NCBI GenBank assembly: GCA_963676755.2
Contig: OY781536.2
Span: 261,640 to 325,639 of the forward strand
DNA: 64,000 bases
Source: an uncultured Celeribacter sp.
GTDB taxonomy: Bacteria > Pseudomonadota > Alphaproteobacteria > Rhodobacterales > Rhodobacteraceae
Reading direction: 5' to 3'
Both the position numbers and the translations under genes were made by a program. Positions within the stretch are counted from its first letter, which is position 1. Each line of letters opens with the position of its first letter. Below are positions 13,663 through 57,222 of this stretch, one piece after another. A model generated the notes under the pieces. That model did no database searches and had not been told where the DNA came from. It saw nothing but the letters and a program-made list of their open reading frames with translations.

Positions 13663-14005
13663 GCATCAAATCCCTGCATCTGTGGAAAAGGGTTTCGCGA
13701 GAAACAGAGACGCAAATTGCGGGAAGCGTCACGCAACATGTTGATGTGGCGGTCTTTCACTATCAATCGGAGTCTCAAAGTCTTCGCAAAATGCGTCAAT
13801 CCTTCGTTGCCTCAAAGAGTTTCTCTCGCTAAGGTTGAATTGACCGTGCGTAAATCTCATAGCAAGTGAATCAATTGCGCGGGTGTGAACTGGTTACACG
13901 TCTCCGCCGGAAGTATCGGCGCTCTGGCCAGTCGTTCAGCAGACTTGAAACCTTAGCCCTTTGTTTTGTCGCCTCCCCCGAACCCCAGCCAAACGGAACC
14001 GAGTA

Positions 14006-14371
14006 ATGAGTGACCCGATGGAAGACCTGCCCTACGAAGACCGTATCGCACATATTCGGCTGCGGTTTGTGGACAGTCTGGGCGAACGGTTCGAGGAAAT
14101 CCGGGCCGCGCTCAAATCCGGACCGGACGAGAACTCGCGTGACAGTCATGTGCGCACGATCCACCGCCTGTTTCATGACATGGCCGGAAGTGCCGCGATG
14201 CTGGAGATCGAGGTGCTGGAAAGTGCCGTGCGTCCGGCGGTGCATATCGCGGAGCGGGTCGACGCGGCGCAAAGCGAGCTGACTGATGACGAGAAACACG
14301 AATTAGACGCGATCATTGAGCAAGCTCAAGCTGTCGCCGTTCAATTGAGAGAGCAATTTAGACCGACATGA
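14006..14371 (+). CDS. Hpt-like histidine phosphotransfer protein (about 121 aa)
   Basis: Small and predicted all-helical. TIHRLFHDMAGSAAMLEIEVL resembles the Hpt H-x-x-K-G-x-A motif, with Lys replaced by Met. I chose the ATG at 14006 (MSDPMEDLP); the ORF-track start is 13961. The stop overlaps the next gene start (ATGA at 14368-14371). Confidence 0.5.
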   Translation: MSDPMEDLPYEDRIAHIRLRFVDSLGERFEEIRAALKSGPDENSRDSHVRTIHRLFHDMAGSAAMLEIEVLESAVRPAVHIAERVDAAQSELTDDEKHELDAIIEQAQAVAVQLREQFRPT

Positions 14372-16329
14372 AACACGTCCTTTTCGCAACCGTCTCGCTC
14401 TGTATTCTGGCCTTGGGTGCACAGGCGCAAACGACTGCCACGCCCCAAAATGAAGGCGCCGCCGCGGCTGCGCCCTTACGCATGGGAAACACCCTGATCC
14501 GCAATATGTCTTTGCGGGATTTGGGATTTCGTGATGGCATTTCCTTCAGCCGCCTGTCTGGCGAAGCGACGGTCTATTTCCCCGTGCTTGAAGAAGCGCC
14601 GCTGCGCGACGGTTTCTTGAGCCTTGATTTCGAACACGGAGCCACCAACGGGGTGGAGCGGTTCTTGCAAGTCCGGATAGGCGACCGCATCGCCGCCTCG
14701 GTCGGCTTGCCGGAGGAAGGCGGTCGGCTTTCCCTGCCTGTTTCGATCCGGCCTGATGATTTGCGCGGCGGTTTCGTGCCTGTGACCCTGACCTATTCCG
14801 GCGGTTTCTCCGAGTTTGTTTGCATTGACGAGCGGGCCTCTGGGGATTTCATCCAGATTTCACCGGACTCGGCGCTGTCCCTGACGCTTGCCTCGGACGA
14901 GATCGACACGCCTTGGGAATTCAACGGGCTGCGTCCGTCGCAGGTCTACGTTCAGATGCCTCAAAGCGACCAGATCGCGAGTTTGGCCGCGGCTGTGCGT
15001 GCGGCAACCCTGTTCGGAGCAGAGCAAGGCGGCGTGCGTTTCGGGACGGAGCCTGTCGACACAAGCGGCTATGTCTGGGAGACCGGCGCGATTGCTTTGG
15101 ATGTGACAACGTCCGGCACGGCCAGCGAGATGGAAGTCGTGGAGCAGGGCGGAAAACCCGTTCTGCATCTGCGCGGCACCGATCCCCAGATCGGGCTGTG
15201 GCAACTCTCCTCCGATTGGGCGGAAGTGGCGGATGCGGCTTCGAGTGTGACGGGTGCCATCTCTGACGGTGCCTTTGATGCGGAGGCTTTGGCGCTGACA
15301 GATTTGGACGCGGATTTGCAAGCGCGGCTCGTGTCGACATCGACACAGTTCCAAGTTCCGTTCCAGTCCACCGATCTTCCGGTCGGGAAAACCGTGTCCG
15401 AAGTTGACCTGATCCTCGCGGCGGGGCTTGATCCCTTTGGTGCAGGTGCGACGGTGTCTGTCTATCTCAATGACAGCCTGCTCGGTTCGCGCCCCTTGGC
15501 AAAGGGGGAGCCGGAACGTGTGAAACTCTCTGTGCCTTCGGGTGTTGTCGGGCGAGATAATCTGCTGCGTATTCTGGTGCAGCGACAGGTTTCTACGACC
15601 GGATGCGGAGGGAAAGCCCCATCCTATCCCGCGCAGGTCTTGCCGGGCAGCAAGCTGATCCTTTCCGAGGCGACTGGCGGGGCCGACCAGTTCTATCAGC
15701 TGCGTCAGGAGTTCGAGAGCGGCGCACAGATTTTTGTCGATCCCGACATGGGGCTGTCGCATAGCGATGTGCTGCCGTGGCTCGGTAATGTGGCGGGCAC
15801 AATGGTTCCTGACCAAGCGACGATCATCCCCCGCAATGCCCTGACGGACATTGAGGCAGGCACGCCCTTTATCATCCTGTCCGACACCAACCCTGGCGAG
15901 GGCGATCCGCTGATCACGGTTGACGGGGGCCGGATCGAAATCCGCGACCGTGCGGGTACTGTGATGTTCGACGGAGACGATTTGGACCGCCTTGGCATTG
16001 TGCAGATCGTGACGCGCAACGGGGCGCATGGCCTTTGGGTCCGTCCGGGGAGCGGCCCTGCGCCAGCGAGCTCTGCGCTGACGCCCTTTGTGCTGGATCG
16101 CGGAGATGTGGCCTTGATCGCGGAGGACGGCGTGATTGTTGCGACCTCTACGCGCGGCAGCTCTCTGATTGACGTGGTCTATCCTGATCGCACCAGTCTG
16201 AAGCAGATTCTCGACCAGTATCGTCCGTGGATTGTGGGCGGGTTGTGGCTGGCCTTGACCCTGATCGTTTTGGCCGCGTTCCAGAGAATTTACCGCCGTC
16301 GCCAGTCTTCCTCTTCAACGGATACATAG
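14368..16329 (+). CDS. BcsB-like periplasmic protein (cellulose-synthase regulatory subunit family) with signal peptide and C-terminal TM anchor
   Basis: Signal peptide MKHVLFATVSLCILALGAQAQ. Two internally similar halves each show a BcsB-type pattern: SLRDLGF..ISF..GEATVYFPV...GFLSLDFEH...FLQVRIGDRIAASVGLP and VSEVDLILAAG...ATVSVYLNDSLLGSRPL. The C-terminal anchor is WIVGGLWLALTLIVLAAFQRIYRRRQ. A GT2 synthase gene follows directly. Confidence 0.55.
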   Translation: MKHVLFATVSLCILALGAQAQTTATPQNEGAAAAAPLRMGNTLIRNMSLRDLGFRDGISFSRLSGEATVYFPVLEEAPLRDGFLSLDFEHGATNGVERFLQVRIGDRIAASVGLPEEGGRLSLPVSIRPDDLRGGFVPVTLTYSGGFSEFVCIDERASGDFIQISPDSALSLTLASDEIDTPWEFNGLRPSQVYVQMPQSDQIASLAAAVRAATLFGAEQGGVRFGTEPVDTSGYVWETGAIALDVTTSGTASEMEVVEQGGKPVLHLRGTDPQIGLWQLSSDWAEVADAASSVTGAISDGAFDAEALALTDLDADLQARLVSTSTQFQVPFQSTDLPVGKTVSEVDLILAAGLDPFGAGATVSVYLNDSLLGSRPLAKGEPERVKLSVPSGVVGRDNLLRILVQRQVSTTGCGGKAPSYPAQVLPGSKLILSEATGGADQFYQLRQEFESGAQIFVDPDMGLSHSDVLPWLGNVAGTMVPDQATIIPRNALTDIEAGTPFIILSDTNPGEGDPLITVDGGRIEIRDRAGTVMFDGDDLDRLGIVQIVTRNGAHGLWVRPGSGPAPASSALTPFVLDRGDVALIAEDGVIVATSTRGSSLIDVVYPDRTSLKQILDQYRPWIVGGLWLALTLIVLAAFQRIYRRRQSSSSTDT

Positions 16330-16335
16330 ACCAAG

Positions 16336-18225
16336 ATGCCGCTTGATGCCGAAAGCGAAGCGATTGGCACATTGTTGCTGGATCGGGGGATTCTGTCTCC
16401 CGATCAGCTTTTGGCGGCAGAGGAGCATGCCAGTGACTGGGGGGTGTCCTTGGTCAAGGTACTCTTGTCGCGCCGCTGGATCACCTCGGATCAACTCTAC
16501 GAACAACTGTCCTATCACTATGATTTGCCGCTGGTCGATCTCATGGAGAACCGGCCTGATGACGCGCTGATCCGCAAATATGATCCGCGGATGATGAATG
16601 ACCGGATGACCGTTCCAATCGGGGAGAGTGATGGCGTTCTGACCATAGCCACGGCGCGTCCGGGACCGGCCACCTTGCTCTATGTGCGTCAGACCTACGG
16701 ACCGAAAGTGCGCATGGTGATCGCCTCACACTTCGATCTGTCGTGGTCGCTGCAACGCGCATTCCGCGAGCAGCATTCCCATGAGGCGGTGTTCGCCTTG
16801 GCCGAGATTGACCCCGAGATGTCCGCCCAACAGGTCATCACGCCGCCGCAGATTCTGGTGCTCTATCTGCTGCTTTCGATCTTCCTGCTGGGGATTGCTT
16901 TTGCTCCGGTCCCGACCTTGATCGTGCTCAATGTGTTTCTGACGGTGTTTTACACGGGGAATTTCCTGTTCAAGGCCGTGCTTGTCTGGGTCGGCGGGGC
17001 GGCGCAAGAGTCCTCGTCCCGCGCGATTGCGGCGGAGGCGGGTCTGTTGCGTGATGAGGATTTGCCTACTTATACAGTTCTTGTCCCGATGTTCCGCGAA
17101 CCCGAAGTGTTACCGATCCTGACGCAAGCTCTGCGCAATCTGGACTATCCTTTGGCCAAGCTGGACATCAAGATTGTCCTTGAAGAAGGCGATCACGAGA
17201 CCATTGAGGCGGCGCGGAGCCTGAACCTCGAAGGCGTCTTTGAAATCATCCGCGTGCCCGCCTCGCATCCGCAGACCAAACCCAAGGCCTGCAATTTCGC
17301 GCTGCGTTATTCGCAGGGGGATTTTCTGGTCATTTTCGATGCCGAGGATAAGCCTGAGCCGGACCAGTTGAAAAAGGTCGTCGCGGCCTTCAACCAGTCG
17401 CCTGACAACACCGCCTGCATCCAGTGTCGCCTGAACTACTACAACGCGCGCGAGAACTGGCTGACGCGGATGTTTACGCTGGATTATTCCCTGTGGTTCG
17501 ATCTCATGCTGCCGGGGTTGGAACGGTTGAAAGTGCCGATCCCTTTGGGGGGCACGTCGAACCATTTCCGCATGGATGTGCTGCGCGAGTTGAATGCGTG
17601 GGACCCGTTCAATGTGACCGAAGACGCGGATTTGGGTATTCGCCTGACGCAAAAGGGTTACCGCGTGGGGGTGATCGATTCCACCACCTTCGAGGAGGCC
17701 AATGTCTCCATCCCCAACTGGATCCGCCAGAGGTCGCGCTGGATCAAAGGCTATATGCAGACCTTTCTGGTCCATAGCCGTCGCCCCATCCATCTGTGGC
17801 GCTCGATTGGTCCGTCGGGGGTGTTCGGCTTTGTCTTCTTTATCGGCGGCACCTTTTTGTCCGGACTGCTCAATCCGGTGTTCTGGGCAGTTTTCGCGCT
17901 TTGGATGATCTTTGGCGAAGATATCATCTCGCCCTACTTCCCCTTGCCTGTGCTTTACCTGTCCATGCTGAACCTTCTGGCGGGCAATGCTTTGTTGATC
18001 TACCTGACGATGGTGGCGCCGTTCCGACGACGCTGGACCTATCTGGCGCCATGGGGGGTGACGGTCATCGGCTATTGGGTGCTGATGACCATTGCCTCTT
18101 ACAAGGCGCTGTCGCAACTGGCGTTCAATCCTTTCTACTGGGAAAAGACCGAACACGGTCTGTCCAAACACACCGCCAATGAAGTGGCCGAAGCCAGTGC
18201 TGATGCCGAGGAGGTCAAGGGATGA
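16336..18225 (+). CDS. Processive family-2 glycosyltransferase (BcsA/COG1215-like synthase) with N-terminal T2SSE_N/MshEN-like domain and no PilZ
   Basis: N-terminal residues 10-69 match the tandem GspE/MshE N-domain repeats ending LPLVDL. Two TM segments follow. GT-A motifs are present: YTVLVPMFREPEV, FDAEDKPEPD (DxD), VTEDADLG (TED) and QRSRWIKGY (QxxRW). A C-terminal TM bundle follows. The C-terminal tail is only about 30 aa and has no RxxxR/DxSxxG PilZ motifs. Confidence 0.8.
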   Translation: MPLDAESEAIGTLLLDRGILSPDQLLAAEEHASDWGVSLVKVLLSRRWITSDQLYEQLSYHYDLPLVDLMENRPDDALIRKYDPRMMNDRMTVPIGESDGVLTIATARPGPATLLYVRQTYGPKVRMVIASHFDLSWSLQRAFREQHSHEAVFALAEIDPEMSAQQVITPPQILVLYLLLSIFLLGIAFAPVPTLIVLNVFLTVFYTGNFLFKAVLVWVGGAAQESSSRAIAAEAGLLRDEDLPTYTVLVPMFREPEVLPILTQALRNLDYPLAKLDIKIVLEEGDHETIEAARSLNLEGVFEIIRVPASHPQTKPKACNFALRYSQGDFLVIFDAEDKPEPDQLKKVVAAFNQSPDNTACIQCRLNYYNARENWLTRMFTLDYSLWFDLMLPGLERLKVPIPLGGTSNHFRMDVLRELNAWDPFNVTEDADLGIRLTQKGYRVGVIDSTTFEEANVSIPNWIRQRSRWIKGYMQTFLVHSRRPIHLWRSIGPSGVFGFVFFIGGTFLSGLLNPVFWAVFALWMIFGEDIISPYFPLPVLYLSMLNLLAGNALLIYLTMVAPFRRRWTYLAPWGVTVIGYWVLMTIASYKALSQLAFNPFYWEKTEHGLSKHTANEVAEASADAEEVKG

Positions 18226-19631
18226 TGCGTATCTCGGGGCGTCTGGCAGGGTTTGTCATGCTGTTTCTTGGACTTTTGCTGAGCCTCGCATGGGCACAGG
18301 CGCACGGGTTCATCTCCGCGCGGGTTGTGATGCTGTGGTCTAAGGCAATCATGCAGGTGGACGGGCCGGCCAGTTTCAATTCGACGGATGCGTTCTTTCC
18401 GCCTTTGCCTTTTATCCTCTCGATTGCCCTGCAATGGATCACCGGAGGGACCACCGTCCCGATTCCCTTCCTTCTGTCCGCGGGTCTTGGCGCGTGGCTC
18501 TTGGTGATGTGGTATGACAATCTGCGCACAAATGGCGGGATTTCGGTTCTCACCTGTTGTCTCGCGCTGACTCTGCTTGCGCTCAATCCGTTTTTCCTGC
18601 GTGTGCTGGCAGAGGGGCCGGAGGCGGTTCTTACCCTGATAGGCACATGGATTTTCGCACGCGGAATCGTCAACCTGCGGCTGACCGGCAATGCGCCCGA
18701 CATGATGAAAGTCGCCGTTGGCCTGTTGATCGTGTCTCTGTCCAACAGCTACGGCTTGCTGATCGGTCTTGGCGCCTTGCCCTTCATGGTCATCGCCGCC
18801 CGCCCCAGCATGTTGGTTGCCTCACCAATCGGTTATCTCTTTGCGATGTTCTACCCTGTGGTGGCGGCGATCCTGTCTATGGCTTTTATCAGCAGCGTCT
18901 TTGACAGTGCGCTGGTGCCCTTGCTGACCGAAGAACCTGTGCCGATCTCGTTGCAAAGCCATCTGGTGATCCTCGCAGGTCTTGTGCCGGTGACCCTCGT
19001 TGCCGCTCTGCGCAGCCTTTTCACGCCGCATTATGTCATGCCGCTGGTAGCGGCCTTCGGTGCGACTTTTGGCGCTTACCTGCTTAACAGCGTGTGGCAT
19101 GTGGAATCCGACCCGACGCTGGCCCTTGCGCCGATGCTTGCAGTGTTGGTTGTCGCCATCCGCTTCTGGCCCGCGCTTGCGCTGCGCGAACCGATTGTCG
19201 TGGCCCTTCTGGCGCTTGGGCTGGTGCTCGGGGTGTTTTCCTTGCGCGCCAATCCGGTGGTCGAGACCCGCAACTGGGTGGCCGCGATGCAAGGGGACAT
19301 CATCGGGGATCACGCAGCAACCCGTGATCTCGTCGCCTTTCTCGAAGATAAAGACGGTATCATGGTTGATGTGGAACGAAACCCGGAGATCGTGCCGCAA
19401 ATTGATGATATACAAAGGCTCATAGTCTCCGGCCAAACGATTTACGATTGGGCGTTGGAGGGGGGGCGATTGCAAGCCCGCTATGTTCTGGTGCCGACTA
19501 TGCAGGGCGGCACGATCGAAGAAGACCGCATTTTGCGCCGGTTCCCGGAACTCAAGAACGGTCGGTTAGCATTTTATGAAGAGGTTTTCATGAATGACCG
19601 GTGGCGGGTTTTTAGGAGGATTGAATCGTGA
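18222..19631 (+). CDS. Polytopic inner-membrane protein (about 11 TM plus a ~120-aa C-terminal soluble domain), GT-C (ArnT/PMT)-like architecture, function unknown
   Basis: 469 aa with about eleven hydrophobic segments. Acidic residues occur in the first extracytoplasmic loop (QVDGPASFNSTDAFFPPLP). The ATGA overlap with the synthase stop supports a real, co-translated gene. The family assignment rests on architecture only. Confidence 0.6.
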   Translation: MMRISGRLAGFVMLFLGLLLSLAWAQAHGFISARVVMLWSKAIMQVDGPASFNSTDAFFPPLPFILSIALQWITGGTTVPIPFLLSAGLGAWLLVMWYDNLRTNGGISVLTCCLALTLLALNPFFLRVLAEGPEAVLTLIGTWIFARGIVNLRLTGNAPDMMKVAVGLLIVSLSNSYGLLIGLGALPFMVIAARPSMLVASPIGYLFAMFYPVVAAILSMAFISSVFDSALVPLLTEEPVPISLQSHLVILAGLVPVTLVAALRSLFTPHYVMPLVAAFGATFGAYLLNSVWHVESDPTLALAPMLAVLVVAIRFWPALALREPIVVALLALGLVLGVFSLRANPVVETRNWVAAMQGDIIGDHAATRDLVAFLEDKDGIMVDVERNPEIVPQIDDIQRLIVSGQTIYDWALEGGRLQARYVLVPTMQGGTIEEDRILRRFPELKNGRLAFYEEVFMNDRWRVFRRIES

Positions 19632-19641
19632 GGGGACGTAA

Positions 19642-20598
19642 ATGAGCCAACGCATTATGGCAGTCGATGATTCCGATATTGCTCAGGAGTTTATTCGTAG
19701 CAATCTGGCCGAACTGGGGTTCGACAATGTTGTCAGCTTTATGGACCCGCGTGTGGCGCTTGAGGCGATCGAGAGCGGAGAGGCCGAGGCCGATCTGATC
19801 CTGATGGATATCATGATGCCGGAGATCGACGGGATCGAGCTTTGCGCGCGGATCAGGGTAATTGACGCATGGCGCGATATTCCGATCATCATGCTGACCA
19901 GTCGCAAGGACATGGAGGCCCTGTCCAGTGCCTTTATGGCCGGTGCGAATGACTATGTGACCAAGCCGTTCGACCGGATCGAGTTGCAAGCACGGATGCG
20001 TAGTTGTCTACGTCTCAAGTCCGAACTGGACCGCCGCCGTGCCATCGAACATCGCGGCAAAAGACGCGCTGGGCAGGGGGCTGCAAGCGGGCCGCAGTCG
20101 GAGGTCTCACATGTGATGCTTGGCAGTCAGGCGGGGCTGCAAGCGGATTTCAGGGCCATGTCGCCGGAGGCCCAGTCGGCTTTGGGGTTGGTGGTTCTGA
20201 AGATCGACAGCCTGTGCGAAAAGCGCGCTTTGACTGACTTCCAAAAGGCGGAGATCATTCAGGCCACGGCTAAGGCTCTGGCCGATGTGCCGATGACTGC
20301 CGGAGAAAACTTCGTGCATTGGGAGGAGGGCCTGTTCTGTTTTGCAAGCCCATGCGCATCCGAAGACGATTTGCGGGCGAGGGCAGAGGCTTTCATCAAA
20401 GCTGTTCAATCCGCCAAGATCACCACGCCGAACACTTGGGAAAAGACGCCCGTGTCCATCAGCGCGGTTCTAGCGCCGAAACAAAACGGCACGATTGGTC
20501 ATCGCCTTGGAAAAGCCATTCAATTGGTAGAGAACATATGTGAGACGGGCCAGCTTCAGACCATAACTGTCCTGCCAACCCAACGGAATGACGCCTGA
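19642..20598 (+). CDS. Response regulator: REC domain fused to a degenerate GGDEF-like domain
   Basis: REC motifs are MAVDDSD, DLILMDIMMPEIDG and NDYVTKPF. The C-terminal half is collinear with GGDEF domains: LVVLKIDSL aligns with LLIDIDFF, VSISAVLAP with VTISIGVSA, and LGKAIQLVENICETG with LKRADEGVYQAKASG. The signature is HWEEGLF instead of GGDEF/GGEEF, and no RxxD I-site lies 5 residues upstream. Confidence 0.7.
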   Translation: MSQRIMAVDDSDIAQEFIRSNLAELGFDNVVSFMDPRVALEAIESGEAEADLILMDIMMPEIDGIELCARIRVIDAWRDIPIIMLTSRKDMEALSSAFMAGANDYVTKPFDRIELQARMRSCLRLKSELDRRRAIEHRGKRRAGQGAASGPQSEVSHVMLGSQAGLQADFRAMSPEAQSALGLVVLKIDSLCEKRALTDFQKAEIIQATAKALADVPMTAGENFVHWEEGLFCFASPCASEDDLRARAEAFIKAVQSAKITTPNTWEKTPVSISAVLAPKQNGTIGHRLGKAIQLVENICETGQLQTITVLPTQRNDA

Positions 20599-20601
20599 CC
20601 C

Positions 20602-22581
20602 ATGAGCCATATGTTCAACAAACCCTACGCGGCGCAAAGCCAATCGGAAAACGGTCGTGTGTTTATCGCCTTGGTCTTGTCCCTTGTGCTGGTGTTCGTT
20701 GCGGGGATCACCCTGTTGGTGCGCTCCGATTACAAACGCACGGTCAATGAATCCGAAGACCAGCTTGCCTATATCGCAGAGCTGCTTGAGCAATCGGTGG
20801 AGTCCACGCTGGCTGTCGCCAATTTGCATATGTGGGGCATGATTGACCAAATCGCCTTGACGGAACTCGGGACCACGGAAGAGATCGAGAGCCGCTATGG
20901 TGATTTGTTGCGCAAGACCGTGGAGGACATCGACCAGATCAACAGCGTTGTCCTGATCGCCACCGACGGAAATGTGATCTGGGCGTCGGTGGATAACCTC
21001 AGCGGACGGTATCTTGGAGACCGTCAGTATTTTCGGGAAGCTTTACGTCTGGGCGAGGGGGAATATGCCGTCGGCGTGCCTTTGATCGCGCGAGGAAGCG
21101 GGCAGCGTGTGACGCCGATTGCATGGCCGGTGGCTTCACCCTACGGGCGGGTGCTTGGCGTGATCGTTTCATCCTTGGGAGAGGAATATTTCTCGGACCT
21201 GCTGACCTTGACCGAGTTTCCATCTGATCTGCATGTTGACATTCAGGCCTCGAACGGGGCCGCAGCATTCCATTCCAACGAAGCCCCGCGTGCGATCGGC
21301 TCGACCATCATCAGCGCCACCAGAGAGATTGCCTCTCTCGGGTTGACGATTGATGTCAGCCGCAGCAAACACTCGGTCATGGCGGCCTTCTATGTGCGGA
21401 CCGCCGGTTTCATCGCTGTCGCGATCATTCTGTTTGCCACAGCAATCGGCATGGCCATCCGCCTGAAGGCGAAGTCTGTTCAACTTGCGACCGGATTGCA
21501 TCGTTCGAAAGAGGACAACTATCGCATTGTCGCGGCGCAACGCGAATTCAACACGATTTTCGACAATGTCGGAGACGGAATCGTTATCTTTTCCGAAGAC
21601 GGAACCCTGAACCGCACCAACAAAATGGCCCGCGAAATTTTGGGAACAGAGGGCAGCGAAGCGGCTGTCGCTCGGTTGCGCACGCTTCTGCCGGAGTTTT
21701 CGGATATCAACAGTGATTTCGAGGTGCATCGGATCAAAACCGACGAGACACAGCCAGAACAGGCGGTGCAATGTCGGGTGATGAAGCTGACAACCGGCGA
21801 TCAGGAAATTGCCTATTGCGTGCTCACCGATGTCACCGCCGAAGAACGGCTCGCAGCGGCGCGCACCAATTTCATCACATCCATCAACCACGAATTGCGC
21901 ACACCTCTGACCTCGCTTGCCGGGGCCTTGGAGCTTCTGGAAAACAGATATGCCGAAAGCCTGCCCGCACCTGCGAGGCGCTTGTTGGCGATGGGGTCGC
22001 GCAATGCGGACCGGTTGCTCTTGCTGGTGAACGACATCCTGACGTTGCAGGCGATTGATCAGGGGAAATTCCATGTGGATGCCGAACCTGTTCCGGTGGA
22101 GACGGCTTTGGAAGAGGCCATTTCGACCAATTCCGGTTATGGCGTGGCCACAGGCGTGAAACTACAGCGCAGTGCTTCTGTCACCGGCGATGTGTTTGTT
22201 GATCCGGACCGGTTGCAGCAGATTTTCTCGAACCTCATCTCGAACGCGATCAAATATTCCCGACCCGAGGGGATCGTCGAGATCGGCGCGCAAGAGGCGG
22301 GCGACGAGGTAACATTTTATGTTCGCGATACGGGGCCGGGCATCCCCAAAGCCGCCCGCCATCGCCTCTACGAACGTTTTACCACGCCGCTGCACGGGCG
22401 CGGAGTGCAGATGAGCGGCACGGGTCTTGGCCTTGCGATCACCAAGCAGTTGGTCGAGCGACAGGACGGCCAGATCACCTTTGAAACGCGCACGGAGGAA
22501 GACGGGCAAAAGGACACGGGCACCGTCTTTTATGTCACGTTCAAACGCCCCGCAGCGCCCGCAATGGAGAAAACCGCATGA
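20602..22581 (+). CDS. Sensor histidine kinase (TM, periplasmic Cache-like domain, TM, PAS, HisKA, HATPase_c)
   Basis: Two TM segments flank a ~230-aa domain carrying the Cache-type GDRQYFREA motif. PAS motif: FNTIFDNVGDGIVIFSEDG. H-box: SINHELRTPLTSL. N, G1 and G2 boxes: SNLISNAIKYS, VRDTGPGIP, GTGLGLAI. There is no receiver domain. Confidence 0.9.
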   Translation: MSHMFNKPYAAQSQSENGRVFIALVLSLVLVFVAGITLLVRSDYKRTVNESEDQLAYIAELLEQSVESTLAVANLHMWGMIDQIALTELGTTEEIESRYGDLLRKTVEDIDQINSVVLIATDGNVIWASVDNLSGRYLGDRQYFREALRLGEGEYAVGVPLIARGSGQRVTPIAWPVASPYGRVLGVIVSSLGEEYFSDLLTLTEFPSDLHVDIQASNGAAAFHSNEAPRAIGSTIISATREIASLGLTIDVSRSKHSVMAAFYVRTAGFIAVAIILFATAIGMAIRLKAKSVQLATGLHRSKEDNYRIVAAQREFNTIFDNVGDGIVIFSEDGTLNRTNKMAREILGTEGSEAAVARLRTLLPEFSDINSDFEVHRIKTDETQPEQAVQCRVMKLTTGDQEIAYCVLTDVTAEERLAAARTNFITSINHELRTPLTSLAGALELLENRYAESLPAPARRLLAMGSRNADRLLLLVNDILTLQAIDQGKFHVDAEPVPVETALEEAISTNSGYGVATGVKLQRSASVTGDVFVDPDRLQQIFSNLISNAIKYSRPEGIVEIGAQEAGDEVTFYVRDTGPGIPKAARHRLYERFTTPLHGRGVQMSGTGLGLAITKQLVERQDGQITFETRTEEDGQKDTGTVFYVTFKRPAAPAMEKTA

Positions 22582-22946
22582 AAGTTCTGTTTGTCGATGA
22601 CGAGGCCGATATCCGCGAGATGATCGAAATTGCCTTGATGGTCGAAGAGGATATTGACGCAACCTTCGCGTCCGGCGGCGCCGAGGCCATTGAAATCCTG
22701 AAGTCGGAAACCTTCGATGCAATCCTTCTTGATGTGATGATGCTGCCGCCGGATGGTGAAGAGGTCCTTCGCACCGCACGCAGCCTTCCCGCGCACAAAA
22801 CCACGAAGATCGTCATGTGCACGGCCAAAACCTCGCAAGAGACGGAACAGGAGCTCAAGGCAATGGGGGCGGACCGTGTTCTGCACAAACCCTTCAAACC
22901 CGTGAAACTGGCAGGCTATCTGCGACAGATTTTAGGGACGCAATAG
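22578..22946 (+). CDS. Stand-alone receiver (CheY-like single-domain response regulator)
   Basis: 122 aa with MKVLFVDDE, AILLDVMM and HKPFKP motifs. Its ATG overlaps the kinase stop (ATGA). Confidence 0.9.
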   Translation: MKVLFVDDEADIREMIEIALMVEEDIDATFASGGAEAIEILKSETFDAILLDVMMLPPDGEEVLRTARSLPAHKTTKIVMCTAKTSQETEQELKAMGADRVLHKPFKPVKLAGYLRQILGTQ

Positions 22947-23223: not shown

Positions 23224-23249
23224 GCCGACTTTGCGTTCGGCAATTTTTT
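23224..23249 (+). terminator. Hairpin GCCGA-N8-TCGGC followed by a T6 tract; competing hairpin CGGCAA-TTTT-TTGCCG (23238-23253)
   Basis: 5-bp GC-rich stem followed by AATTTTTTG. It lies 280 nt after the REC gene and 75 nt before the next CDS. The second hairpin shares the CGGC nucleotides, so the two structures are mutually exclusive. Confidence 0.3.
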
Positions 23250-55005: not shown

Positions 55006-55117
55006 TTGGATATATTTTTAGTGCTCGTTCGAACTTCAAAGCCACTGAGTCGGAGCCTGCCAGGCTCCTGTGGCCCTATCCCACCGGAACGCCTGCTTCG
55101 CCGAAAGGCTGCGCGCC

Positions 55118-55906
55118 TCAGAAGTCGAGGGAATTGCGTTCGCGATAGCCTTGCAGGAAGCTGGCGAGGCGCGGGTCGGTCGGGTTGTTGAACACGTCAC
55201 GCGGCGAGCCGGTGGCGACGATCTCTCCGCGTTCCATAAACACCACCCTGTCGGCCACATGCGCGGCAAATCCCATTTCATGGGTGACCACGACCATGGT
55301 CATGCCTTCGGCGGCAAGCTGTTTCATCACACCGAGCACCTCGCCCACCAGTTCCGGATCAAGCGCGCTGGTCGGTTCGTCGAACAGCATGATGCGCGGC
55401 TCCATAGCGATGGCTCGCGCGATGGCGACCCGTTGCTGTTGTCCGCCGGAGAGGTGGCTGGGATGGTTGTTTTCCTTGTCCGCCAGACCGACCTTGGCCA
55501 GCGCCTCGCGGGCACGCGCCTGCGCCTCGGGGCGTTTCAGCCCGCGGACGCGCTCAAGCCCTTCGGCCACGTTCTGCAAGGCGGTCATATGTGGCCAGAG
55601 GTTGAATTGCTGGAACACCATGCCGATCTCGCGGCGCATCTCGCGCAACCGGTTCGCGGCCATCACTTTGCCACCGGGGCTGTCATAACCGATCAACTGG
55701 TCATCAATCCGCACCTCGCCGCTGTCGTAGAGTTCGAGCACATTGATACAGCGCAGCAATGTGGACTTGCCCGAACCGGACGGGCCGATCAGGCAGGTCA
55801 CCTTGCCCGGCGGGATGTCGAGACTGACGTCCTTCAGAGCCTGAAACGGGCCATAGAATTTGTTGACATTGCGCAAATGGGCGGAGGCGGCGGTCTGGCT
55901 GGTCAT
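55118..55906 (-). CDS. Polar amino acid ABC transporter ATP-binding protein (HisP/GlnQ type)
   Basis: Walker [10 protein letters not shown], signature [14 protein letters not shown] and Walker [12 protein letters not shown]. Length is 262 aa. Confidence 0.9.
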
Positions 55907-55909
55907 CTC

Positions 55910-56569
55910 TCAGCTCCGATCAAGAAGATAATGGGTGAAGCGGCGCTCCAGACGGCGTCCGAAGCGCGAGATCAATTCGACGAAGCCCCAGAAGAACAGT
56001 GCAAGGATCAGGATCGGGGCGACAAACGCGAAGGTTTCGCTCATCATTGTCTGGGTCTGGAACATGATCTCGGGGACGGTGATCATCGACAAGATCACGG
56101 TTTCCTTCGTCAGGATGATCGCGAAATTCACCAGTGCGGGCAGGGCAGAGACCATCATGACCGGCACCATGATGCGGGTGATGATCGTCGTGTTGCGAAA
56201 GCCGATGGCGCGGGCGGCTTCGACCTGACCGACGGGCACGGCATCAAAACCCGCACGCAGGATTTCGGTGAAATAGGCGCTGCCGTAAATCGTCAATCCG
56301 AGGATACCTGCGGGCAGGGCGTCCAGACGCAACCCGATGAGCGGGCCGCCGTAATACAGGACAAAAAGCTGCACGAGGAAGGGCGTGCCACGGATGAATT
56401 CGACATAGGCGCGGATCGGATAGCGCAGGAAACCGGGGCCGAACCGGCGGGCGATCTCGATCATGAAGCCGAGCACAAGGCCGAGGAGTGTCCCCAGTGC
56501 CCAACTCAGAATGGTGTATCCGAACCCCGTGAGCAGATCGGGGCCGTAGCGTTGGAGTATCTCCGTCAT
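55910..56569 (-). CDS. Amino acid ABC transporter permease (HisM/HisQ type)
   Basis: 219 aa with a His/Glu/Gln/Arg/opine-family permease pattern (FIRGTPFLVQLF). Confidence 0.9.
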   Translation of the reverse strand: MTEILQRYGPDLLTGFGYTILSWALGTLLGLVLGFMIEIARRFGPGFLRYPIRAYVEFIRGTPFLVQLFVLYYGGPLIGLRLDALPAGILGLTIYGSAYFTEILRAGFDAVPVGQVEAARAIGFRNTTIITRIMVPVMMVSALPALVNFAIILTKETVILSMITVPEIMFQTQTMMSETFAFVAPILILALFFWGFVELISRFGRRLERRFTHYLLDRS

Positions 56570-57222
56570 CAGACCATAAGCCTCCGTTCAAGCATGCGTC
56601 CGGCCTGTGCAATCACAAGGTTGATCACGAGGTAGATAAAGGCGGCGGCGAGGTAGATTTCGAGGGGGCGATAGGTGGCCGCGGCGATGGACTGGCTCAT
56701 GCGTGTGATTTCCACAATGCCGACCACGGTGACAAGGGAGCTGGCTTTGACCAGCAGAATCAATTCGTTGACGATGGCGGGCAAGCCGATCTTGAGCGCC
56801 TGTGGTAGCAGAATACGGATCCAGACATCGCGGGGCGCCATGCCGATAGCAGCGGCGGCTTCCGCTTGCCCTTGAGGAATGGCATTGAGAGACCCGCGCA
56901 GCACTTCCGACAAATAGGCGGCGGCGCAAAGCCCGACGGTCAGGACCGCTGCGGCCAGTGCGGGCACATTGATGCCGATCACAGGCAGCAGGTAATAGGC
57001 CGCGAGAAGCTGGATCAACAGCGGGACACCGCGGAAAAAGCTGACATAAAGCGCCGCACTCCGGCGCATCCAGCGCTTGTTCGACAGGGCGGCAGCACAG
57101 ATCACAGCGCCGAGAATAAGCCCCTCGATACAGCCGAGGACCGAGATCAGGAGCGTGTAGCGCGCCGAGCCGAGCAACACCGGAAAATTTTCCACGATCG
57201 TCTGGAATGAAAACATTGCCAT
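56569..57222 (-). CDS. Amino acid ABC transporter permease (HisM/HisQ type)
   Basis: 217 aa with the FFRGVPLLIQLL motif. The stop and start abut the neighbouring permease gene. Confidence 0.9.
   Translation of the reverse strand: MAMFSFQTIVENFPVLLGSARYTLLISVLGCIEGLILGAVICAAALSNKRWMRRSAALYVSFFRGVPLLIQLLAAYYLLPVIGINVPALAAAVLTVGLCAAAYLSEVLRGSLNAIPQGQAEAAAAIGMAPRDVWIRILLPQALKIGLPAIVNELILLVKASSLVTVVGIVEITRMSQSIAAATYRPLEIYLAAAFIYLVINLVIAQAGRMLERRLMV

Follow-up and report, generated by a model that had tools for sequence, protein, structure and literature searches.

In a 64-kb stretch of DNA from an uncultured Celeribacter sp. (contig OY781536.2, positions 261,640 to 325,639; hereafter the window, whose numbering is used throughout), we examined a 629-residue exopolysaccharide synthase and the gene cluster in which it lies. 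The synthase opens with a complete and genuine MshEN/T2SSE_N (GSPII) domain, which stands before a BcsA-like processive glycosyltransferase of family 2 (GT2) that has no PilZ domain. Canonical high-affinity binding of cyclic di-GMP (c-di-GMP) has probably been lost from this N-terminal domain, and we propose, with a probability of roughly 45%, that the domain is a nucleotide-blind docking and regulatory module driven by a phosphorelay, through which polymer synthesis would be gated without c-di-GMP.

Positions 16336-16800 encode residues 1-155 of the synthase. A preliminary description of this region, made from the letters alone, had proposed an N-terminal MshEN/T2SSE_N-like domain on the basis of a 60-residue segment, which corresponds exactly to residues 10-69 of the open reading frame (ORF). 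A search with profile hidden Markov models bore out the assignment, as PF05157 (MshEN) matched residues 62-149 with an E-value of 2.1e-12 and a score of 47.3 bits, above the cutoff of 23.1. Among NCBIfam models, residues 10-158 matched the PilB N-terminus of TIGR02538 (E-value 9.5e-10) and residues 6-157 matched the NfrB model over its MshEN part (E-value 5.7e-9). Searching the PDB with phmmer recovered PilB, PilF and MshE, and the two 24-residue repeats and their five-residue spacer proved to be in register with those of Vibrio cholerae MshE (VcMshE). Because the alignment to 5HTL, the structure of MshEN with c-di-GMP, is gapless over residues 1-80, residue numbers in that range are also VcMshE numbers. 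An AlphaFold2 model of residues 1-165, which had a mean predicted local distance difference test score (pLDDT) of 88.7, featured helices at residues 5-16, 22-35, 39-45 and 51-62 and, after these, an alpha/beta subdomain. When this model was compared with the PDB using Foldseek, the only matches at E-values below 1e-4 were MshEN/GSPII domains: PilF GSPII-A (9G1W, E-value 8e-9) came first, 5HTL was matched with an E-value of 1.7e-8 (TM-scores of 0.69/0.80, root-mean-square deviation 2.6 A), and further matches were PilF GSPII-B, the complex of the PilB N-terminus with PilZ from Xanthomonas citri (7LKO) and the XpsE N-terminus (2D27). The fold matches also included 2BH1.

The remainder of the protein has the features of a processive GT2. 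A full-length AlphaFold2 model (pLDDT 84, predicted TM-score 0.85) resembled hyaluronan synthases, BcsA (4P00, 4HG6) and chitin synthases, and the catalytic motifs DAED (residues 335-338), TED (428-430) and QRSRW (465-469) are present. The last predicted transmembrane helix spans residues 568-597 and leaves a tail of 32 residues, in agreement with the preliminary description, which had put this tail at about 30 residues and found no PilZ motif in it. No PilZ domain is hidden elsewhere in the synthase either: Pfam gave no match, [DN]xSxxG does not occur, and the sole RxxxR is the RQRSR within the catalytic QxxRW.

Relative to VcMshE, the N-terminal domain carries the changes R9A, L29E, Q32A, R38S, G40V, G47R and Q61H; G11, G18 and the remaining hydrophobic positions are intact. 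The residues A9, G11, G18, H31/A32, V40 and R47 had been read correctly in the preliminary description; L29E, R38S and Q61H were not listed there. Using the relaxed tandem c-di-GMP motif of Wang et al. (2016), [RKPN]hGxxhhxx[GAS]hhxxxxhxxxhxx[QNKRYWST], we scored domains by the number of positions matched out of 22. The window synthase scored 15/22, with misses at A9, E29, A32, S38, V40, R47 and H61, and neither of its repeats matched the motif as a regular expression. The NCBIfam 'c-di-GMP_motif' model NF053729 reached 28 bits over residues 10-59, short of the 38 bits set as its cutoff.

These substitutions are shared by the close relatives of the synthase. Among 117 homologues of at least 62% identity, Q32 is replaced by alanine in 104, G40 is retained in only 11, G47 has become arginine in 72, L29 is replaced by glutamate, serine or threonine, and arginine is not among the seven commonest residues at position 9. 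A diverse set of 99 representatives, clustered at 50% and scored on the MshEN copy nearest the glycosyltransferase, retains G11 in 84 members, L29 in 74, Q32 in 44, R38 in 57, G40 in 85, G47 in 65 and Q61 in 58. We also scanned one genome per species for the synthase locus, which gave 557 confirmed relatives; locus counts refer to the best 80 of these 557, and the motif was scored in 76 loci, 42 with and 34 without the neighbouring REC-GGDEF regulator described below. Scores were 20-22/22 in Mariprofundus, Ferriphaselus, Thiobacillus and their relatives among the gamma-, beta- and zetaproteobacteria, 18/22 in Xanthomonas and 14-16/22 in the Rhodobacterales subclade that includes the window, and the motif appears partly degenerate in Hyphomicrobiales and Sphingomonadales.

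Published measurements give these changes a meaning. In VcMshEN, G11L and G40I variants lose binding and show no c-di-GMP-induced stabilization, and in VcMshE any single change at a conserved hydrophobic position lowers affinity more than 10-fold (PMC5013675). PilF GSPII-A gives no c-di-GMP binding in isothermal titration calorimetry or nuclear magnetic resonance, and it departs from the consensus only at H33, S39, A41, I55, I59 and R62 (PMC12002112), which are deviations of the same kinds and at the same positions as those of the window domain but fewer in number. For a return of binding, PilF GSPII-A required more than repair of its motif. Another non-binder, XpsE, has G11V, L29R, R38G, G40L and Q61V. 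G40V and the other changes in the window domain thus parallel those of PilF GSPII-A, XpsE and the VcMshEN mutants, which suggests that canonical binding has been lost and makes probable the weakening or loss of ligand binding that the preliminary description had raised.

We also considered whether the domain still acts as a receptor of c-di-GMP, at reduced affinity or in a non-canonical pose, that activates the synthase as the MshEN domain of NfrB does, in which case the REC-GGDEF regulator would be an adaptor or unrelated. We regard this as unlikely, even though the fold is intact in a high-confidence model, repeat 1 has both glycines and most of its hydrophobic positions, some members of the family have near-canonical motifs, and single substitutions of Arg9 or Gln32 in VcMshE shift affinity less than 5-fold (PMC5013675). 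The RxxD I-site that is kept in 5 of 28 regulator orthologues likewise points to an ancestry of the system linked to c-di-GMP. However, the window domain combines seven deviations at once, including G40V, G47R and L29E, where one hydrophobic change alone would be costly; PilF GSPII-A fails to bind with fewer, XpsE fails with analogous glycine-to-valine or -leucine, L29R and R38G changes, NF053729 stays below its cutoff, and across the clade these substitutions have become fixed.

Loss of the motif has not been accompanied by loss of the domain. The MshEN fold is retained across the alphaproteobacterial clade at 36-81% identity, and a recognizable N-domain is kept in 116 of 150 diverse representatives. 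W35, Y55, A59, P94 and Q140 are conserved throughout the family, and conservation of A32, E33, R46, T106 and G110 is specific to the clade, where W48 is conserved as well. A full-length, confidently folded domain with conserved residues of its own indicates purifying selection rather than decay. The same observations make it very unlikely that the domain is a decaying vestige on a synthase controlled by transcription only, as xagABCD is controlled through the diffusible signal factor (DSF)/RpfG pathway in Xanthomonas. In favor of such a scheme, transcriptional control of xag in Xanthomonas is strong (PMC3609779), and a gene for a LysR-type regulator lies upstream in the window; against it stand the length, folding and 36-81% identity of the domain, the conservation of A32, W35, R46, W48, Y55, T106 and G110, and the wide retention among diverse representatives.

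Two segments of the domain merit separate mention. W35 (16438-16440), which lies in the supposedly non-conserved spacer between the repeats, is invariant in 76 of 76 loci whatever the state of the motif. We dropped the idea that it was gained specifically in the clade, as its invariance through the whole XagB family leaves it unlinked to the loss of binding. The ATARPGP loop (residues 103-111, 16642-16668) includes T106 and G110, whose conservation is 100% where the REC-GGDEF neighbor is present and 21% where it is absent; the loop is a candidate interface, in a comparison that is confounded by phylogeny.

The invariance of W35 in 76 loci, together with the family-wide conservation of Y55, A59 and P94, is also what would be expected if the domain had an intramolecular or assembly role independent of c-di-GMP. 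In this alternative, the domain would have been re-purposed outside the phosphorelay, either for another ligand (a different cyclic dinucleotide or nucleotide) or for oligomerization or assembly with the XagC-like protein, the BcsB-like subunit or the glycosyltransferase domain. The MshEN_C/T2SSE_N domains of GspE/EpsE dock membrane partners (compare the fold matches 2BH1 and 2D27), and stacks of five to seven MshEN domains in Chloroflexota relatives suggest scaffold-like uses. There is no positive sign of another ligand, however, and the order-spanning synteny of Hpt and REC-GGDEF genes would be unexplained if the domain were purely structural. We therefore consider this alternative improbable as well.

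That synteny centers on a 318-residue regulator encoded after the XagC-like gene. A profile of 28 orthologues matched WspR (3BRE) over its full length with an E-value of 4e-46 and also matched the GGDEF domain of PleD. In the window protein itself, Pfam detected REC and no GGDEF, and the C-terminal 187 residues had no match with phmmer against the PDB and no Pfam family at E-values up to 10. The GGEEF active site is replaced by WEEGLF in the window and by YRNGxI or YGDGxF elsewhere, and TAGE stands in place of the RxxD I-site, which the five orthologues from other families retain. Judged by its motifs, the regulator is not a diguanylate cyclase, and its GGDEF domain is predicted to be catalytically dead. 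A regulator of this type directly follows the XagC-like gene in 44 of the 80 loci, all of them alphaproteobacterial and none with GG[DE]EF, and it is absent from the Xanthomonas, Mariprofundus, Ferriphaselus and similar loci, in which XagD, of glycoside hydrolase family 113 (GH113), comes next.

The cluster is also predicted to encode the full set of parts for a His-Asp-His-Asp phosphorelay, as all four domain types occur with intact phospho-acceptors: HisKA in the sensor kinase, D51/K103 in the single-domain REC protein (REC122), the histidine of FHDMAGS in the Hpt protein and D56/K108 in the regulator. Hpt ORFs occur just upstream of the BcsB-like gene in homologous loci (L005, L008, L011, L024, L030, L066 and L081), which span Rhodobacterales, Hyphomicrobiales, Sphingomonadales and Henriciella. 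In our iterative search for Hpt, REC-Hpt fusions drew in REC domains; the last round was discarded, and selected upstream ORFs were confirmed with Pfam. The kinase gene after the regulator and the single-domain REC gene are syntenic in Rhodobacterales loci (L001-L005, L066). A Rhodopseudomonas palustris locus, which was found from the regulator side, contains, in this order, Hpt, BcsB-like, MshEN-GT2, XagC and REC-GGDEF (weak) genes; adjacent to them lie a hybrid-kinase gene, a REC-Hpt gene, a GH113 gene and one for an outer-membrane barrel. A WspR/PleD-like regulator is encoded at this place in 44 of 80 loci, which lends circumstantial support to the idea that it docks on the MshEN-like domain, and a preliminary suggestion that the domain could dock REC proteins encoded downstream fits this arrangement. 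The state of the motif also differs with the neighborhood: Q32 is kept in 3 of 42 loci with the regulator and in 25 of 34 without it, and the median motif scores are 17 and 19, respectively (Mann-Whitney p 4e-4, uncorrected for phylogeny).

In the mechanism that we favor, the periplasmic BcsB-like subunit and the XagC-like membrane protein would be the partners of the XagB-type membrane-embedded GT2. An extracytoplasmic signal would be passed from the histidine kinase to REC122, then to the Hpt protein and finally to the REC-GGDEF regulator, although the order of transfer could differ. The phosphorylated regulator, dimerized through its WspR-like stalk, would contact the synthase, most plausibly with the MshEN-like domain as the docking and allosteric module, and polymer synthesis would be activated, rather than inhibited, without c-di-GMP. 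There is precedent for the separate steps. In Firmicutes, degenerate GGDEF proteins exert control over GT2/BcsB-like synthases. The cyclase DgcJ contacts NfrB directly (PMC8669469, PMC10211494), and among the fold matches, 7LKO contains a c-di-GMP-blind MshEN-like N-domain of PilB that docks PilZ in X. citri.

Several points weigh against this proposal. Repeat 1 keeps G11, G18 and all but one of its hydrophobic positions, which makes weak or half-site nucleotide binding possible, and base stacking by the aromatic residues W35, W48 and Y55 is conceivable in principle. The target of the regulator could instead be XagC, the BcsB-like subunit or another protein, and no residue is invariant in the C-terminal half of the regulator among the 28 orthologues, which fits a scaffold and defines no interface. 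The link between loss of the motif and presence of the regulator is confounded by phylogeny and imperfect: Azospirillaceae (L013, L020, L031) pair a near-canonical motif (21-22/22) with the regulator, and Acetobacteraceae loci (13-14/22) have no adjacent regulator. Finally, the operon structure is deduced from gene spacing and overlaps.

The distribution of these states lends itself to an evolutionary reading, which we regard as doubtful. The operon would be the end point of a series that began with an MshEN receptor and a REC-GGDEF partner and in which the nucleotide sites have all been lost, leaving a pure protein-protein switch. The sites lost in this series may be the MshEN motif, the A-site of GGDEF and its I-site, and the switch may be driven by the dedicated His-Asp-His-Asp phosphorelay. 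Extant stages appear to include the zeta-, beta- and gammaproteobacterial XagB, with a canonical MshEN and no regulator; the Azospirillaceae, with a canonical MshEN and a regulator with an RxxD I-site; the Hyphomicrobiales and Sphingomonadales, which are partly degenerate; and the Rhodobacterales, which are fully degenerate and have the kinase, REC and Hpt genes. The three Azospirillaceae loci belong to Nitrospirillum and Niveispirillum, and the Niveispirillum regulator keeps the RxxD I-site; these loci may represent an evolutionary intermediate. The expectation that erosion of GGDEF tracks erosion of MshEN did not hold, as Niveispirillum has a near-canonical MshEN but a GGDEF match of about 12 bits, and the match in Beijerinckiaceae is 45 bits.

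By homology, the synthase belongs to the XagB family of synthase-dependent exopolysaccharide synthases. The nearest protein, at 98% identity, comes from Celeribacter halophilus and is annotated as 'glycosyltransferase family 2 protein', and homologues are named 'glycosyltransferase XagB' by JGI. Xanthomonas XagB (L049, L051, L052, L055) is 53% identical over residues 6-616, and the XagB of L055 shows the same MshEN-GT2 architecture in Pfam. Other assignments were tried and set aside. With 56 bits, the cellulose synthase model TIGR03030 (CelA) fell far short of its cutoff of 699, and a PilZ domain is lacking. The synthase is not a BcsA derivative, and the earlier notion that control had moved to the N-terminus relative to BcsA is not supported by the data. 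The NCBIfam scores for PgaC and NodC were far below threshold. An NfrB-type synthase was rejected as well, as only the MshEN part hit PRK11234 (34.9 bits against 1170), the MshEN domain of the window protein is N-terminal and degenerate, and the neighboring genes differ. The wzx/wzy pathway of Sphingomonas exopolysaccharide was dropped as a comparison that is irrelevant to this system.

The N-terminal MshEN-GT2 architecture is already known. Precomputed PF05157 matches exist on nearly all of the listed homologues, with thousands annotated by Pfam, and Wang et al. (2016, Suppl. Table 4) catalogued the architecture 'MshEN - Glyco_trans_2_3' with Rsph17029_0522 of Rhodobacter sphaeroides as an example. 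The architecture has also been noted earlier for Sfz2 of Zetaproteobacteria, and the novelty implied in the preliminary description was therefore overstated. XagB is needed for the biofilm exopolysaccharide of Xanthomonas (PMC3609779), and pairs of XagB-like and BcsB-like genes are candidates for stalk formation in iron oxidizers (PMC4643136, PMC8250860). No paper found by our library search on xagB, c-di-GMP and MshEN mentions XagB. Replacement of the c-di-GMP site throughout the clade may be new, as may its tie to a dedicated Hpt/REC-GGDEF phosphorelay.

Two observations concern other members of the family. The N-domain of the Sfz2/XagB-like protein of Mariprofundus ferrooxydans (L061:8797-10851) scored 21/22 on the c-di-GMP motif; a published interpretation takes it for an EpsE-like, secretion-ATPase translocation module, but a predicted c-di-GMP receptor is the better reading. 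In Chloroflexota (Dehalococcoidia, Ardenticatenia; P0132, P0134, P0147, P0151), relatives of about 1300 residues have five to seven tandem MshEN-like domains before the GT2, and in some of them the canonical motif occurs only in the copy nearest the glycosyltransferase. This arrangement is not known to us from earlier work.

The features of the synthase and of the genes around it are collected in Table 1. The seven genes lie on the + strand, separated by gaps of 10 nt or less or overlapping by 4 nt. Scans of the region for promoter and terminator consensus sequences returned sites at frequencies not above the shuffled expectation.

Table 1. Coordinates of the synthase, its domains and the surrounding gene cluster in the 64-kb window.
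Feature	Position	Strand	Basis
Hpt protein; likely true start ATG at 14006; putative phospho-His in FHDMAGS; 4-nt overlap with next gene	13961..14371	+	PF01627, 28.6 bits (cutoff 24.6)
BcsB-like periplasmic subunit, 653 aa; N-terminal signal peptide, C-terminal transmembrane anchor	14368..16329	+	Pfam BcsB, 36.3 bits (cutoff 21)
XagB-family synthase, 629 aa; MshEN-like domain, transmembrane helices, processive GT2, transmembrane helices, 32-aa tail	16336..18225	+	Pfam, NCBIfam, AlphaFold2, motifs
MshEN_N four-helix bundle, residues 5-62	16348..16521	+	VcMshE alignment, AlphaFold2 helices, Foldseek to 5HTL and 9G1W
Repeat 1, residues 9-32	16360-16431	+	Alignment to VcMshE
Spacer, residues 33-37, with invariant W35		+	Alignment to VcMshE
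Repeat 2, residues 38-61	16447-16518	+	Alignment to VcMshE
MshEN_C/T2SSE_N alpha-beta subdomain, residues 62-149, with ATARPGP loop	16519..16782	+	PF05157
GT2 catalytic domain, residues 244-525	17065..17910	+	Pfam Glyco_tranf_2_3 and Glyco_trans_2_3
XagC-like polytopic membrane protein, 469 aa; 4-nt overlap with synthase gene	18222..19631	+	Synteny, weak similarity
WspR/PleD-like REC-GGDEF regulator, 318 aa; REC (D56, K108 intact), coiled-coil stalk, degenerate GGDEF	19642..20598	+	Pfam REC, orthologue profile
Sensor histidine kinase; dCache, transmembrane segment, PAS, HisKA (55.5 bits), HATPase_c; not hybrid	20602..22581	+	Pfam
Single-domain REC (REC122), 122 aa; D51, K103; 4-nt overlap with kinase gene	22578..22946	+	Pfam REC, 74 bits
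Terminator-like hairpin and T-run after last gene; possible operon end	23224..23241	+	Consensus scan only; such sites not above shuffled expectation

The neighborhood is of the xag type in part. The BcsB-like gene stands upstream and the XagC-like gene downstream of the synthase gene in most of the 80 loci. The window BcsB-like protein is 26% identical to its syntenic BcsB-like equivalent in Mariprofundus and is the counterpart of Sfz1/CDS9 of iron oxidizers; the XagC-like protein, which has no Pfam match, is 20% identical to the syntenic Mariprofundus XagC. No GH113 (XagD) gene was found anywhere in the window. In xag/sfz clusters, XagD is a GH113 protein, a beta-mannanase family (L055:12113-13138, L061:12319-13350, L081:10808-11848), and this partner hints at a beta-1,4-linked mannan-like or glucomannan-like polymer in the related clusters. 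The R. palustris HaA2 locus encodes a putative outer-membrane beta-barrel of 267 residues in the Phenol_MetA_deg family (L081:10004-10807). Genes for such barrels follow the regulator in many alphaproteobacterial clusters and resemble the Xanthomonas gene upstream of xagB; the window cluster has no outer-membrane barrel gene, so that no outer-membrane exporter was identified there. Elsewhere in the window, a 521-residue ORF at 55070-56635 (+ strand) has coding-like base composition at third codon positions (GC3) and no Pfam family at an E-value of 0.001 or below.

Control by c-di-GMP is the textbook picture for synthase-dependent exopolysaccharide machines. If our proposal is correct, a widespread alphaproteobacterial version, including that of the marine Roseobacter group, swaps the second messenger for direct control by a phosphorelay while keeping the receptor fold. 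It would then be an example of the rewiring of a second-messenger module, in which annotation as 'MshEN' or 'GGDEF' is not proof of responsiveness to c-di-GMP. The analysis also links the XagB/Sfz2 family, which comprises the biofilm exopolysaccharide synthase of Xanthomonas and the candidate stalk synthase of iron oxidizers, to a predicted c-di-GMP receptor domain.

Among known systems, XagB of the Xanthomonas xagABCD cluster and Sfz2 are alike in full-length homology, in the MshEN-GT2 arrangement and in the XagC-like gene downstream, and in Mariprofundus and Ferriphaselus a BcsB-like gene lies upstream as it does in the window. In contrast, the GH113 protein XagD is part of the xag/sfz clusters and is absent from the window, the Hpt, REC-GGDEF, kinase and REC genes of the window are missing from those clusters, and the motif score of 15/22 is lower than the 18/22 of Xanthomonas and the 20-22/22 of Mariprofundus, Ferriphaselus and Thiobacillus. 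Rsph17029_0522, which is also from Rhodobacterales, has the same domain order, a likeness drawn from its catalogue description only, and some proteins in that catalogue have no recognizable motif (Wang et al., 2016).

NfrB of Escherichia coli is similarly a processive GT2 (DxD, TED, QxxRW) fused to a cytoplasmic MshEN domain, and its synthase is contacted directly by DgcJ. However, the MshEN domain of NfrB is C-terminal, following two transmembrane helices, and is fully conserved, with a dissociation constant of about 1 uM; the glycosyltransferase domains are not close relatives, the partners are NfrA and YbcH rather than a BcsB-like protein and XagC, and the GGDEF neighbor in the window is predicted to be catalytically dead. 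BcsA-BcsB shares with the window system a membrane-integrated processive GT2 fold, a BcsB-like partner and a fused regulatory domain, which in BcsA is a C-terminal PilZ and in the window is N-terminal and of another fold. [quoted passage not shown] Finally, proteins with a dead GGDEF domain are encoded with, and control, GT2/BcsB-like exopolysaccharide synthases in other bacteria, as in Listeria PssE, Bacillus subtilis YdaK and Pseudomonas PelD. In these, an intact RxxD I-site serves as the c-di-GMP sensor, whereas the window regulator lacks that site and has a phosphorylatable REC domain as its input instead.

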